The notes under the pieces were generated by a model. It was not told where the DNA came from and did no database searches. It saw only the letters and a list, made by a program, of their open reading frames with translations. From a virus, in the UHGV virus genome UHGV-0112874: a stretch of DNA of 10,456 nucleotides; one strand, written 5' to 3'. Positions 2,117 through 5,565 of the stretch are shown piece by piece. A program made the translations under genes and the position numbers. Every line of letters begins with the position of its first letter. Position 1 is the first letter of the stretch.

Positions 2117-2809
2117 TTAATTGTGTCGCTTAAGGGTTTGTGACTGGCTGATTAAGACCTTTCCAAAGACCATAAACCGGTGTTCATTTTCGCTGGTAAT
2201 TCCCCATTCACGGTAAATCTGGTTATCAGAAATCACCAGTAGTTTGTCAGGTATCATTTGCAGTCGTTTGACATAAATTTTATCATCAAAACCAAATACA
2301 TAGATACCATCTCCATCAAACTGATTGATACTGACATCAACGAAGATGAGATCTCCTGGCTCAATGGTTGGACACATACTGTCCCCACGAACGTTGATAA
2401 CTTTAATGTGATTGGCTGGTCGTCCGCCAAACATCGATACAGCATTATCAGTTCTGTATTCAATGGCATGAATCACATCAATGACATCACCGCCCTGGAT
2501 AAGGCCATTTCCCGCACTGGCACTGACATCCAGCATTTCAATACGGAATACATCCTTCACCTGCGCAACATCCTCATTAATACTGTTTTTACATACAGTA
2601 TTACTTTTGAAGTCTGAGGTAAAGAGATCAGCAATATCAACACCTAAGCTCCTGGCAATATTACTCAGGGCTTGTTCAGTGAATTGTTTCTGCTTACCTG
2701 TTTCCAGGCGCGAGATATTCGCCGCATCCACTCCTATTGCTTCAGCGAGATCGGCGATTTTCATGTTCTTCGCCTGGCGAAGTTGTCTGACTCGATTTCC
2801 TATGTTCAT
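2117..2809 (-). CDS. CI-type phage repressor (N-terminal XRE HTH, C-terminal S24/LexA-like autopeptidase domain)
   Basis: 230 aa. N-terminus MNIGNRVRQLRQAKNMKIADLAEAIGVDAANISRLETGKQ is a typical HTH; C-terminal ...VRGDSMCPTIEPGDLIFVD...KIYVKRL carries the Ser (GDSM) and Lys (KRL) catalytic pattern of LexA/CI-type repressors. Divergent from cro-like with operators between. No SD upstream of the ATG. Confidence 0.9.
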   Translation of the reverse strand: MNIGNRVRQLRQAKNMKIADLAEAIGVDAANISRLETGKQKQFTEQALSNIARSLGVDIADLFTSDFKSNTVCKNSINEDVAQVKDVFRIEMLDVSASAGNGLIQGGDVIDVIHAIEYRTDNAVSMFGGRPANHIKVINVRGDSMCPTIEPGDLIFVDVSINQFDGDGIYVFGFDDKIYVKRLQMIPDKLLVISDNQIYREWGITSENEHRFMVFGKVLISQSQTLKRHN

Positions 2810-2906
2810 GCGTTTATTACATTTCTTTATTGCGCGTTAAGCAAATCAACTTGCGCAAAATATTTGCGTGAAATAATATGCTCATCACGCAATATGTGGA
2901 GGTTAT
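2810..2906. promoter_or_regulatory. oR region with divergent pR and pRM-like promoters; three operator-like sites at 24-bp centre spacing
   Basis: Sites TTGCGCGTTAAGCAA (2830-2844), CGCAAAATATTTGCG (2854-2868), ATGCTCATCACGCAA (2878-2892), centres 2837/2861/2885. pR: -35 TTGCGC (2851-2856), 17 nt, -10 TAATAT (2874-2879), then SD GGAGG (2898-2902) and cro ATG 2907. Minus strand: -10 TAATAA (2819..2814) ends 4 nt before the cI ATG, suggesting a leaderless cI mRNA as at lambda pRM. Confidence 0.6.
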
Positions 2907-3167
2907 ATGCAATCACCATTACGGAATGTGCGTAAGGCGCACGGATTTACTTTGCAGCATGTTGCTGCTGGCGTTCAGGTCAATCCAGCGACGCTGAGTC
3001 GTATTGAAAGACTGGAACAAATTCCATCTATCGATCTTGCAGAACGTCTGGCCAATTTTTTTAAGGGTGAAATCAGCGAAATGCAGATTCTTTATCCGGC
3101 ACGTTTTCAATCTAGCCAAAACCAGAATGGGTTTAAACCACAGGAACAGGAGGTAAGCCGTGGGTAA
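2907..3167 (+). CDS. Cro-like HTH (XRE-family) regulator
   Basis: 86 aa. HTH ...KAHGFTLQHVAAGVQVNPATLSRIERLEQIPS...; SD GGAGG 4 nt upstream of the ATG; divergent from the CI-like gene. Confidence 0.85.
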   Translation: MQSPLRNVRKAHGFTLQHVAAGVQVNPATLSRIERLEQIPSIDLAERLANFFKGEISEMQILYPARFQSSQNQNGFKPQEQEVSRG

Positions 3168-3711
3168 TCATCACTGGAAAGTGGAAAAACAGCCTGAGTG
3201 GTACGTGAAAGCTGTCAGAAAAACTATCGCGGCGTTGCCGGGGGGTTACGCTGAAGCTGCTGAGTGGCTGGATGTAACAGAGAACGCTTTATTCAACCGC
3301 CTTCGTGCAGATGGCGATCAGATTTTCCCGCTGGGATGGGCAATGATTTTACAGCGTGCTGCTGGCACTCACTACATTGCGGATGCTGTCGCACAGTCTG
3401 CTGGTGGGGTGTTTGTATCGCTTCCTGAAATTGAGGAAGTAGAGAACGCAGATATAAACCAGCGCCTGCTGGAAGTCATCGAACAGATCGGGAGTTACTC
3501 AAAGCAGATTCGTTCGGCAATCGAAGATGGGGTAGTGGAGCCACACGAGCAGACAGCAATTAATGATGAATTGTATCTGTCAATTTCGAAGCTCCAGGAG
3601 CATGCGGCACTGGTCTACAAAATTTTCTGCGCTCCAGAAAAGAGTGACGCCCGCGAGTGTGCAGCTCCGGGCGTCGTGGCGTTTTGTGTCTGTGGAGAAA
3701 CTAACGCATGA
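3160..3711 (+). CDS. CII-like / YdaT-like early regulatory protein (positional analogue of lambda CII)
   Basis: 183-aa ORF with GTG start at 3160 and SD AGGAGG (3148-3153) at 6-nt spacing, overlapping the cro stop by 8 nt (translational coupling). Position directly after cro and the size fit YdaT/CII-type proteins of Rac-like prophages; assignment by recollection and context only. Confidence 0.7.
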   Translation: MGNHHWKVEKQPEWYVKAVRKTIAALPGGYAEAAEWLDVTENALFNRLRADGDQIFPLGWAMILQRAAGTHYIADAVAQSAGGVFVSLPEIEEVENADINQRLLEVIEQIGSYSKQIRSAIEDGVVEPHEQTAINDELYLSISKLQEHAALVYKIFCAPEKSDARECAAPGVVAFCVCGETNA

Positions 3712-3856
3712 ACAGTTTAACGGCAAATAACCGTTTGTCGCAACAGCTGGTGGTCAGCGTCGCTGAACACCTGTTGTTACGGCATGAATGCAGATTACCA
3801 AATCACCTGGCTGTAAGTAACCACAGAGAACTTTACCTGACTGTGGGGGGCGAGTT

Positions 3857-4036
3857 GTGCAGGAACTTAACCGCTGGTTTCGTGACGGAAGAGGGCTTTA
3901 TGTCCATGTTATTCGTTGGGAGCCAGAAACACAGCGCGTTATCTATCTTCGCAAAGACTACCCGCATGAGTGCTTTAGTCCTTTGTGGAAATTCAGGCGT
4001 GATTTTGTTGAGTGTGAAGGACCACCAGCACATTGA
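3857..4036 (+). CDS. Small hypothetical protein (59 aa, GTG start) not in the ORF track; lies in an alternative frame inside the 5' part of track ORF 3708..5189
   Basis: GTG 3857 preceded by GGGGGG (3845-3850). Translation MQELNRWFRDGRGLYVHVIRWEPETQRVIYLRKDYPHECFSPLWKFRRDFVECEGPPAH has a balanced, protein-like composition (W, Y, charged residues), whereas the overlapping frame-0 translation is Leu/Ser/Val/His-rich and looks non-coding. Confidence 0.4.
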   Translation: MQELNRWFRDGRGLYVHVIRWEPETQRVIYLRKDYPHECFSPLWKFRRDFVECEGPPAH

Positions 4037-4121
4037 TTCTGCCATTCCGGGACGTTACACTGTTCAGGCACCTTATAAAGCGGGTGCCGGGATTGGCGTC
4101 CTGGAGAAGGCTACCGCGTAC

Positions 4122-4144
4122 AACCGCGTAGATGCGGTTTTTTT
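4122..4144 (+). terminator. Candidate intrinsic terminator (tR1-like) between the small ORF and the Rha-family gene
   Basis: AACCGC (4122-4127) - GTAGAT loop - GCGGTT (4134-4139) followed by a T-run to 4144 (7 T including the stem end). Confidence 0.35.
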
Positions 4145-4310
4145 GTACGCATTATTTTGTCACGCCCAAATTATGGTGGGGCGTACAGGGGCATCGCAAG
4201 ATGCGCCGGTAAGGGTAGCCGCCGGTAACGCCAACTCTGTACGTCTCACCACCTCTATGATTGGCGTCTTATGTGGTGAGTTTTTTAAGCTTGCTACCGA
4301 GGCTGCCATT

Positions 4311-5189
4311 ATGGCTACGATCCCAACCTTTGTTCACCCTGAAATCACGATCATCAATGGTCGTGCTGTCACTACATCTCTTGCAGTTGCTAACTACTTT
4401 ACTAAACGGCATGAGCGGGTTTTAGATAGAATTCGAAACCTTGAATGCTCCGCTGAATTTGCTGAACACAATTTTGTGTTAAGTGGTTACCAGCATATTG
4501 CTGACCAGTGCGAGATTAGCAAACGTTCTGTGATGAATCATATTGCGGCCCTTTGTGAGTCCGGGCTGGTAAAAAAAGTCACCCGGAAAGGTGAAAAAGG
4601 TAACTCAAGTAATATCTATCTCCTTCATCTGGATGGTGCAGGAGATTCACTAGGGGGTAGTGCAAATAATTCACTATCTGGTGCAGCAAATTCACCAGGT
4701 AGTGCAGGAGTTGCACCAGGGGGTAGTGCAGGAGATTCACCCAGAACCAGTCACTCTTTTGAACCAGTCAAAGAACCAGTCAATGAACCAATAGCTGTTG
4801 GTGCATCAGTTGATGAGTCCGTGCGAGTTCGTTCAAACCGACCGGAATATTCTCCGGAGTTTGAGCAGGCATGGCTGGCATATCCCAAACGTGCTGGTGG
4901 CAATTCAAAATCTGCAGCCTTCAAAGCCTGGAAAGCCCGTTTGAATGAGGGGGTAAACCCCGAAACCATGCTGGAAGGTGTGAAACGCTACGCGGGCTGG
5001 GTATCTGCGATGGGTAACAGCGGCACACAATTTGTGAAACAGGCTGTCACGTTCTTTGGTCCGGATCGTCATTTCGAAGAATCCTGGGAAGTTCCTGCGG
5101 TATCTGCAGCCAGACGCGAGGATCCGTACTTCAAAGCCAGTTACGACAACGTGGACTACAGCCAGATCCCGGCAGGATTCAGGGGGTGA
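4311..5189 (+). CDS. Rha-family (Phage_pRha-type DNA-binding domain) protein with a C-terminal replication-initiator-like domain; start uncertain
   Basis: N-terminal ...ITIINGRAVTTSLAVANYFTKRHERVLDRIRNLEC... is the hallmark Rha motif; C-terminal ...FEQAWLAYPKRAGGNSKSAAFKAWKARL... resembles phage replication-initiation/replisome-organiser domains. ATG 4311 has GAGG at 8-nt spacing. The frame is open back to 3708 but the upstream part looks non-coding; 4173 and 4257 are alternative starts. Confidence 0.7.
   Translation: MATIPTFVHPEITIINGRAVTTSLAVANYFTKRHERVLDRIRNLECSAEFAEHNFVLSGYQHIADQCEISKRSVMNHIAALCESGLVKKVTRKGEKGNSSNIYLLHLDGAGDSLGGSANNSLSGAANSPGSAGVAPGGSAGDSPRTSHSFEPVKEPVNEPIAVGASVDESVRVRSNRPEYSPEFEQAWLAYPKRAGGNSKSAAFKAWKARLNEGVNPETMLEGVKRYAGWVSAMGNSGTQFVKQAVTFFGPDRHFEESWEVPAVSAARREDPYFKASYDNVDYSQIPAGFRG
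4633..4790 (+). repeat. Imperfect short tandem repeats inside the Rha-family gene, encoding a Gly/Ser/Ala-rich linker
   Basis: GTGCAGGAGATTCAC occurs at 4636-4650 and 4726-4740; GGGGGTAGTGCA occurs twice; GAACCAGTCAA is repeated at 4761-4783. Protein: GDSLGGSANNSLSGAANSPGSAGVAPGGSAGDSP...EPVKEPVNEP. Confidence 0.5.
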
Positions 5190-5191
5190 TC

Positions 5192-5565
5192 ATGAGTCTT
5201 TTGAATGAAGTTCAGAAATTCATTGAAGCCCATCCGGGGTGTACTTCCGGAGACATTGCGGATGCTTTTGCAGGTTACTCACGGCAGCGCGTTCTGCAGT
5301 CAGCAAGCAAGTTACGTCAGAGTGGGCGTGTGGCTCACCGTTGTGAAGGAGATACACGCAGACATTTCCCGCGCCTGACCGGATCCGCGATCTGGACAAC
5401 TATAACAAGGCGCTGTTTGACGCCCTGACCCACGCGGGTGTGTGGGAAGACGACAGCCAGGTGAAAAGAATGCTGGTGGAGTGGGGACCGGTTATCCCGG
5501 AAGGGAAGGTCGAGATCACTATCAGTAAGTACGAAAAAGCGAGTGGCAAATTAGCAACTCGGTAA
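5192..5565 (+). pseudogene. rusA: rusA-like Holliday-junction resolvase gene disrupted by frameshifts
   Basis: Frame starting after the stop at 5344-5346 translates to ...FPAPDRIRDLDNYNKALFDALTHAGVWEDDSQVKRMLVEWGPVIPEGKVEITISKYE..., closely matching the RusA C-terminal half (RDLDN...FDALT.AG.W.DD.QV) as recalled, but with no in-frame start. An ATG ORF (5192..5428, 80 aa) runs in another frame over the same DNA, and short RusA-like pieces (GRFYRH; VVKEIHAD) appear in other frames upstream. Total span (~124 codons) equals a RusA-sized gene. Confidence 0.5.

Follow-up and report, generated by a model that had tools for sequence, protein, structure and literature searches.

The virus genome UHGV-0112874 was analyzed as a single stretch of 10,456 nucleotides (nt), which we call the window. 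Our subject is the 5′ part of a long open reading frame (ORF) that runs from 3708 to 5189 on the plus strand and encodes 493 amino acids. A preliminary description, made from the sequence alone, treated the first 200 codons of this ORF as an out-of-frame artifact that conceals a small gene and a terminator. We propose instead that 3708–4310 stacks the start of a ymfM homolog, a DUF4222 gene and a P4-type IsrK-C4 RNA module that would regulate the gene starting at ATG 4311, and that the long ORF is a conserved frame reading through all of them. We put the probability of this reading at roughly 70%. Comparison with related loci establishes, at the level of sequence, the anatomy of the region, the RNA folds, the covariation of antisense and target, and the conserved open frame. 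Judged by family matches and layout, the module is a member of the IsrK-C4 immunity class known from P4, P1 and Gifsy-1, and all its parts are of known kinds. The less expected results are a multiply overlapped frame that appears to be maintained by selection and the overlap of ymfM with DUF4222.

The DUF4222 gene occupies 3857–4036 on the plus strand, in a different frame inside the ymfM-like part of the long ORF. It starts with GTG, has a G-rich Shine-Dalgarno sequence (GGGGGG, 3845–3850) and encodes the 59-amino acid protein that the preliminary description had picked out as a hidden gene. That proposal was right: the protein matches Pfam DUF4222 (PF13973; E = 9.5e-14, 51.1 bits against a gathering cut-off of 27) and phrog_1343 (E = 1e-36), and the gene carries a coding signature. 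In comparisons with three diverged relatives, 26–30 of the 37–58 differences fall at third codon positions. The codon changes separating it from the two closer relatives comprise 21–23 synonymous and 8–9 non-synonymous ones (17 and 18, respectively, for the most distant relative). Read in the frame of the long ORF, the same stretch shows 1–2 synonymous versus 27–33 non-synonymous changes. DUF4222 is kept in 35 loci across the Enterobacteriaceae, over which the synonymous fraction of the overlap is 0.45 in the DUF4222 frame and 0.12 in the long-ORF frame. On these comparisons, the DUF4222 gene is coding. A search of PDB sequences found no solved relative of DUF4222; a single-sequence AlphaFold2 model of low confidence (predicted local distance difference test score of 67) places a three-stranded β meander at residues 2–36.

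If the first 200 codons of the long ORF were open by chance, the real elements would be DUF4222, the terminator and the ORF that begins at ATG 4311, and no others. The amino acid constraint over 3857–4036, which lies in the DUF4222 frame and not in the long frame, favors that explanation, and to this extent the preliminary description stands. The choice of codons within DUF4222 speaks against it. Leu, Ile and Val codons that end in A or G and precede a purine-initial codon can create a stop in the long frame, and at such sites they were used in 0 of 156 cases. The corresponding figures are 60/182 elsewhere in DUF4222 (Fisher p ∼1e-19) and 484/977 in neighboring genes (∼1e-42), counts that are not phylogenetically independent. 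Since DUF4222 contains no stop-creating codon, the long frame over it is not a mere artifact; the ymfM frame is, by this codon evidence, kept open across DUF4222 by codon choice.

The first part of the long ORF has an identity of its own. At 3708–3856 (plus strand, long-ORF frame) lies the 5′ part of a ymfM-like ORF, whose ATG at 3708 overlaps the ymfL stop codon (ATGA). The position of this start and the N terminus (MNSLT..., first 13 residues) are common to e14 ymfM and phrog_1170, although the phrog_1170 match spans only residues 47–98, the part that overlaps DUF4222. A Pfam search of YmfM-like proteins found no family, and residues 1–116 of the long ORF matched none, as would be expected if they were out of frame. 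Across the 35 loci, from diverse Enterobacteriaceae, the N-terminal part of ymfM codes in the long-ORF frame, with 793 third-position differences versus 468 and 351 and a synonymous fraction of 0.43 versus 0.14 and 0.06 in the other frames. Codons 1–50 are, on this evidence, probably the start of a ymfM homolog, and here the artifact claim is not supported. In relatives that carry no IsrK-C4 module, the ymfM frame stops 3–10 nt before the ATG of the replication gene. The stop is gone in the lineage of the window and in Citrobacter braakii (locus L239), and the frame continues through an Ash frame into Rha.

The e14 element of E. coli K-12 has the same arrangement in its ymfL-ymfM-ymfN genes, that is, ymfL, an ATGA-coupled ymfM and an embedded DUF4222 in another frame. 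It differs from the window in having no IsrK-C4-Rha module, and its ymfM ends with a stop codon 10 nt ahead of the replication gene, whereas the frame in the window has no stop. In e14 (L241, 1323–1681), the DUF4222 ORF lies unannotated within the 3′ half of ymfM. A phenotype has been reported for e14 YmfM, based on a clone of “the ORF” that causes filamentation (bioRxiv 10.1101/2020.11.19.390815). Since the published clone extends over the start of DUF4222 and 53 of the 59 codons of that gene, it does not separate the two frames as causes of the SfiC cell-division block ascribed to ymfM in E. coli K-12. The overlap raises the question of whether the SOS-inducible division inhibitor of e14 is encoded by ymfM or by DUF4222. 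The overlap spans ∼52 codons, and both ORFs appear to be maintained in K-12 e14 and in a further set of loci (L206–L238). Annotation is divided on the pair: the K-12 reference has ymfM without DUF4222, and the Prokaryotic Genome Annotation Pipeline (PGAP) gives DUF4222 without ymfM on other K-12 assemblies.

Downstream of DUF4222, two RNA genes occupy what had been taken for junk; the preliminary inventory contained neither, and Rfam places both there. They are preceded by a candidate sigma-70 promoter at 4033–4061 on the plus strand (TTGATT at 4033–4038, a 17-nt spacer and TACACT at 4056–4061), with a predicted start near 4068. The DUF4222 stop codon sits within the −35 hexamer. With 8 of 12 consensus matches, this promoter was absent from the list of a simple promoter scan and was picked by eye and from the alignment of 29 sequence types described below. 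In nearly all of these types, P4 included, TTGnnn, 17 nt and TAnnnT recur at a fixed distance from the first RNA hairpin, and the P4 copy falls where we place the P4 promoter PLE. In Gifsy-1, fusions have shown that the isrK promoter drives transcription of anrP (PMC4825925).

The first RNA, at 4068–4144 on the plus strand, is an IsrK/P4 seqA-like small RNA (Rfam RF01394, 60 bits; gathering score, 50). Hairpin 1 lies at 4068–4087 and hairpin 2 at 4088–4103, with target b1 (TTGGCGT, 4093–4099) in the loop of the latter; target a1 (GGCTACC) follows at 4109–4115. The Rfam c4-a1b1 family also matches the window, weakly (21 bits, cut-off 46.7). The RNA ends in an intrinsic terminator at 4122–4144, with a stem at 4122–4139 and a run of seven T residues ending at 4144. 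This hairpin had been noticed in the preliminary description and is indeed a conserved terminator. A terminator scan alone was not above chance (5 sites found versus 3.0 expected over 2700–5400), and the case rests on a hairpin with T6–T8 being found at the same place in all 29 types, with at least four different stem sequences. Because MAFFT did not bring the stems of the various types into register by structure, each type was folded separately to check its terminator. The further suggestion of a tR1 equivalent holds for position only, the hairpin being the terminator of the IsrK-like small RNA. Two segments that flank the hairpin, GCGTACAA (4116–4123) and TTGTACGC (4143–4150), can extend its stem through the T-run, and comparable flanking complements, such as CGCATAA/TTATGCG, were seen by eye in other types.

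The second RNA is a C4/P4 CI-type antisense RNA at 4169–4256 on the plus strand, which matches the full length of its model (Rfam RF01695, positions 1–87, 68.4 bits against 45). Its predicted fold consists of a 17-bp outer stem, a hairpin with a GCAA tetraloop, a second hairpin that carries a′ (GGTAGCC, 4214–4220) in its loop, and a single-stranded b′ (ACGCCAA, 4228–4234). An AUG at 4173–4175 marks the 5′ foot of the C4 stem; it is present in 101 of 101 unique sequences, lies 138 or 141 nt from the downstream ATG and corresponds to the start of Gifsy-1 orf45. The putative target region on the mRNA follows at 4257–4318 on the plus strand. Here lie target b2 (TTGGCGT, 4261–4267), a segment complementary to the C4 3′ arm (4273–4280, facing 4245–4252) and target a2 (GCTACC, 4293–4298), which abuts the Shine-Dalgarno sequence GAGG at 4299–4302; a second downstream match to a′ (GGCTAC, 4313–4318) lies just past the start codon. 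In the window, a′ and b′ show exact complementarity of 6–7 nt to a1, b1, a2 and b2, in the correct order. The 8-nt complement at 4273–4280 is chance-like in the window alone (∼0.6 expected) and was retained once covariation was seen across types.

To compare loci, 80 IMG/VR loci were anchored on DUF4222; in these, 3690–4079 is almost invariant and 4080–4330 is hypervariable, with 62 unique variants. A scan for the start context (GGCTGCCATYATGGCTA) added ∼120 loci. The resulting comparison set, which includes P4, comprises 130 different upstream regions that fall into 29 sequence types. All 29 types have the two IsrK hairpins, the terminator, AUGG at the C4 foot, the C4 fold, b2, the 3′-arm complement and an a2 that abuts GGAGG-ATG. 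When 20 of the 35 DUF4222 loci were scanned with Rfam, the IsrK-C4 module was found only in the C. braakii locus. A fuzzy search downstream of the 35 DUF4222 loci found no kil-like start, and it also missed C. braakii, whose start context differs. On the minus strand of one IMG/VR contig, 2671181028_000005 (L100), two kil-like start contexts lie ∼1.3 kb apart, near 9650 and 10962, and belong to different C4 specificity types (clusters c9 and c10).

The types support both the folds and the pairing. The C4 stems are paired in 99.9% of cells, with double-sided changes at 15 of 27 pairs; covariation is 0.494 versus 0.222 when shuffled and ≤0.10 in slid controls, and none of 500 shuffles reached the score. 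For the IsrK hairpins, 89% of cells are paired, 9 of 12 pairs show compensatory changes, and covariation is 0.376 versus 0.150. The antisense-target pairs and the 3′-arm helix, assessed over 19 types, are 95.5% paired overall (a′-a2 92%, b′-b2 100%, 3′ arm 96.5%), 18 of 27 pairs have double-sided changes, and covariation is 0.638 versus 0.180. Cognate duplexes exceed non-cognate ones in stability by 4–9 kcal/mol and are the top-ranked pairing in 21–27 of 29 cases; the mean cognate/non-cognate energies are −12.6/−5.5, −17.7/−8.4, −14.0/−6.9 and −9.6/−5.4 kcal/mol. The a and b specificities reassort independently among the 29 types. Such a pattern of pairing is, on comparative grounds, the signature of a heteroimmune antisense system.

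Both RNA genes, the promoter and the targets are crossed by an open Ash/Eta-type frame (4014–4310, plus strand), which is in the same frame as ATG 3708 and ATG 4311. Pfam Phage_ASH (PF10554) matches residues 117–211 of the long ORF (E = 3e-14, 53.9 bits against 26) and covers exactly the two RNAs. GTG 4014 aligns with the usual start of the Ash ORF in relatives that have no DUF4222, ∼99 codons before the ATG and just 5′ of the −35 hexamer. In 27 of the 29 types, there is no stop in the 81 codons before the ATG, and the frame is open for at least 100 codons, past the promoter; the other two frames have means of ∼2 and ∼3.5 stops over the same stretch. Counted over the 101 unique sequences, stops occur at 5 different alignment columns in this frame, every one of them from two frameshifted types, and at 25 and 31 columns in the other frames. 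In the other types, the length from hairpin 1 to the ATG is 243, 246, 282, 285, 288 or 327 nt, always a multiple of three. Candidate codons for ribosome entry into the frame are ATG 3708, GTG 4014 and ATG 3900, the last of which has GAGGG five bases before it.

Conservation of residues 117–201 could be explained by the underlying RNA genes, as the chance explanation would have it. That explanation leaves aside the openness of a single frame in 27 types while the others gain and lose 25 and 31 stop sites, and the lengths in multiples of three. Nor does it account for the avoidance of stop-creating codons in DUF4222, the conserved ymfM start at ATG 3708 or the same nested arrangement in P4, and we consider it unlikely. 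The preliminary description had named full-length homologs that keep the long ORF as grounds for giving up the idea of a mis-call, and these exist in the 62 unique IMG/VR variants and in C. braakii. With codons 103–201 forming a stop-free Ash/Eta-type frame, the long ORF appears to be only partly a mis-call: it is best described, from these comparisons, as a conserved read-through frame, neither a protein domain nor a pure artifact.

The long ORF could also be a genuine multidomain protein in which the N-terminal 200 residues (YmfM-like plus “Ash”) function as a protein joined to Rha. It is handled as a protein family by Pfam (Phage_ASH), PHROGs (phrog_821, phrog_3960 and phrog_995) and PGAP, it is kept from E. 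coli to Citrobacter, and the phenotype reported for e14 YmfM would fit a functional product. However, the Ash region varies where the RNA model predicts, and the compensatory stem changes and hypervariable a and b segments rewrite the peptide. The overlap with DUF4222 has its synonymous fraction of only 0.12 in the long frame. Furthermore, ymfM ends before the next gene in the module-less relatives, and elsewhere the Ash ORF starts alone, ∼99 codons before the ATG. We therefore regard a multidomain protein as very unlikely.

The start of the putatively regulated gene is at ATG 4311. The preliminary description had chosen this codon, with GAGG at 4299–4302, and the choice is borne out by homology to the P4 kil start (EAAIMATIPTFVHPE in the window, EAAIMATTLTPSHPE in P4). 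ATG 4257 was considered as a start and dropped, as it is not conserved. The gene runs from 4311 to 5189 on the plus strand and encodes a chimera of 292 amino acids: a deletion of 701 bp (junction 4488/4489) has joined its first ∼60 residues, which are Rha/antirepressor-like, in frame to a replication initiator. Measured against the intact prophage of E. coli 14EC007 (L001, 3391–4091), which is otherwise 97–99% identical, the missing segment comprises the remainder of rha, an ORF of 74 amino acids and ∼39 codons from the start of the initiator gene. Accordingly, phrog_821, phrog_995 and phrog_518 match residues 1–63 of the chimera and phrog_270 matches residues 55–291. Similarity to Rha begins well inside the long ORF, much as had been described, with the Pfam Phage_pRha match starting only at residue 222 (222–263). 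Against a cut-off of 29.9, Pfam Rha (PF09669) scores 31.4 bits when the ORF is read from 4311 and 29.7 bits with the long ORF, and the alignment takes in only 47 of the 91 positions of the profile; TIGR02681 reaches 32 bits against a threshold of 46. The “Rha family” label does not extend to a full domain here because the deletion removes the rest of it.

The closest parallel to the whole arrangement is the immunity region of the satellite phage P4, with PLE, seqA, the CI RNA, seqC and the nested eta/kil genes; its elements come in the same order. It contains the same Rfam families in the same order (isrK/c4-a1b1, then C4). Its antisense loops, like those of the window, are complementary both to upstream sites and to sites at the Shine-Dalgarno sequence that serves the first gene, and its Shine-Dalgarno and ATG context (GAGGCTGCCATYATGGCTAC) is homologous to that of the window. 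A long ORF again begins upstream of the promoter, ends in frame with the regulated gene and matches Pfam Ash. This P4 ORF has 197–199 amino acids, of which the last 65 are Kil, and matches the whole Ash model (E = 4e-23); we take it to be eta/kil, and Pfam Ash is presumably Eta. Forti et al. reportedly found in 1999 that translation of P4 eta from the upstream promoter prevents immunity-dependent termination. The two systems differ in setting, as the window module lies in a lambdoid prophage, between the cII-like ymfL/ymfM/DUF4222 genes and the replication genes. They differ also in the regulated gene (Icd-like Kil in P4, Rha/antirepressor-like in the window), in both the a and the b specificity, and in the distance from hairpin 1 to the ATG (327 nt in P4, 243 nt in the window). 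Unlike that of P4, the long frame of the window is in addition fused to ymfM and overlaps DUF4222.

Two further systems are related. In P1 and P7, going by the Rfam family definition, the immI region encodes an RNA of the C4 family that carries a′ and b′, and the targets are duplicated, with a1b1 upstream and a2b2 at the first downstream gene; the upstream element in the window differs in carrying an IsrK-type terminator. Citron and Schuster are said to have described, in 1990, the c4 antisense RNA, icd and ant of P1/P7, a system that controls the antirepressor operon. The Gifsy-1 isrK locus and the window agree in the order of their elements: a terminated IsrK-like RNA, then a C4-like RNA, then a gene of antirepressor type. 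Between Gifsy-1 (L242, 34131–34316) and the window (4093–4267), the b specificity is identical (TTGGCGT/ACGCCAA) and the a specificity is different; partial cross-talk is conceivable between prophages that share a b specificity in this way. The Gifsy-1 locus follows a Q-like antiterminator gene, whereas the module in the window is in the early operon. IsrK/C4-like pairs in lambdoid prophages have already been equated with P4 seqA/CI (PMC3632133).

These parallels suggest how the module might work. In a lysogen, by analogy with P4, P1 and Gifsy-1, the internal promoter would make mostly the short, terminated IsrK-like RNA. C4 RNAs are released from a longer transcript by RNase P processing and act as the immunity factor, a property of the class. 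Read-through transcripts would yield C4, which would pair with b2 and a2 and block translation from ATG 4311. The block would in turn permit premature termination, leaving the Rha-like gene and the replication genes silent, and the a1/b1 copy may serve as a competitor or co-regulator. On transcripts that arrive from pR through cro and ymfL, ribosomes translating the long frame might keep the terminator, C4 and the target pairings from forming, as reported for P4 eta. In that case the RNA immunity would not act on lytic transcription, and the short product from ATG 4311 would be the regulated one. The stronger claim, that the frame is selected to stay open across DUF4222, the promoter, the terminator and two RNA genes solely as a ribosome track past RNA immunity, is tentative, and we give it less than an even chance.

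A different role for the frame is translational coupling alone, from ymfL to ymfM to the next start and from AUG 4173 to ATG 4311, with no override of terminator or antisense RNA. The ATGA overlap at 3708, the short gap that separates ymfM from the replication gene in module-less relatives, and the invariant AUG 4173 at its nearly constant distance from the ATG are all in keeping with coupling. So is Gifsy-1, where orf45 ends in ATGA at the anrP start. In the published model of IsrK-orf45-AnrP regulation (orf45/STnc1160), IsrK activates translation in trans (Hershko-Shalev et al., 2016; PMC4825925), and synthesis of AnrP needs translation of orf45 (PMC4825925). Coupling leaves unexplained that the stretch from the promoter to AUG 4173 is also stop-free, with lengths of 105, 144, 147, 150 and 189 nt, all multiples of three, and that the ORF start is always just upstream of the −35 hexamer. 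A pure coupling role is a live alternative, although a rather improbable one; coupling and override are compatible and do not exclude each other.

Several observations weigh against the read-through reading we prefer. Types c11 (e.g., L103) and c20 (e.g., L144) are frameshifted, with in-frame stops and hairpin-1-to-ATG lengths of 242 and 265 nt, and Gifsy-1 orf45 stops at the anrP start and is coupled to it, whereas the frame in the window runs on into the gene. Because of these two types and the coupled orf45, an unbroken frame is, by this comparison, not obligatory. GTG 4014 has no good ribosome-binding site in the window. The N-terminal ymfM-like part has diverged and is apparently unconstrained in the window's own lineage: compared with C. 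braakii, it shows 3 synonymous and 14 non-synonymous changes, and this absence of a coding signature also suits the chance explanation. The a′-a2 pairing of the window is short (6 bp, −12.9 kcal/mol versus a family mean of −17.7 kcal/mol) and does not cover the Shine-Dalgarno sequence. The counts from the comparison set are not phylogenetically independent. Finally, the gene downstream is a deletion chimera, so this copy of the prophage may be defective. Types c11 and c20 may themselves be copies in decay, may reflect sequencing errors or may have switched to a coupled design like that of orf45.

The layout proposed here would correct inconsistent records of the region. It also points to a second layer of immunity, one based on RNA, in many prophages of the lambdoid and Shiga toxin-converting kinds, with at least 29 mix-and-match specificity types that bear on prophage cross-talk, superinfection and satellite-helper conflicts. 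The conserved open frame offers a testable case of translation overriding a terminator and an antisense RNA. Should the ribosome-track idea be true, the family-wide overlap of ymfM and DUF4222 would be part of the track, and lytic transcripts would ride over the prophage's own RNA immunity.

Judged by gene content and identity, the window represents the immunity and early-right region of a lambdoid prophage of the e14/cdtI kind. A cI-like repressor gene lies at 2117–2809 on the minus strand, followed by a cro-like gene (2907–3167) and the CII/CP76-like ymfL (3160–3711). Over 3600–4450, the window shares 99.5% identity with phage cdtI and 100% with E. coli strain 14EC007. Sequence similar to the region is found in 2822 of 5426 complete E. 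coli genomes (about half), and 845 genomes have most of it. The preliminary description foresaw that automated annotation would call the long ORF and miss the rest, and both PGAP on 14EC007 and the authors of phage cdtI (orf44) give the long ORF, of 382 amino acids in the intact phage, and no DUF4222. Other genomes are annotated with DUF4222 plus an “ash family protein.” Overall, the regions examined are annotated inconsistently: the protein is called “Rha family” (382 amino acids) or “ash family protein,” DUF4222 is present in some records and missing from others, and no RNA genes are shown.

Two observations concern other parts of the window. A tRNA cluster at 8022–8251 contains tRNA-Met (CAT), tRNA-Arg (TCT) and an intervening ARAGORN call (8100–8173) whose anticodon was not assigned. 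Near the right end, the segment 10232–10449 matches STnc100, a Gammaproteobacterial small RNA, over its full length (Rfam RF02076, 123.8 bits).

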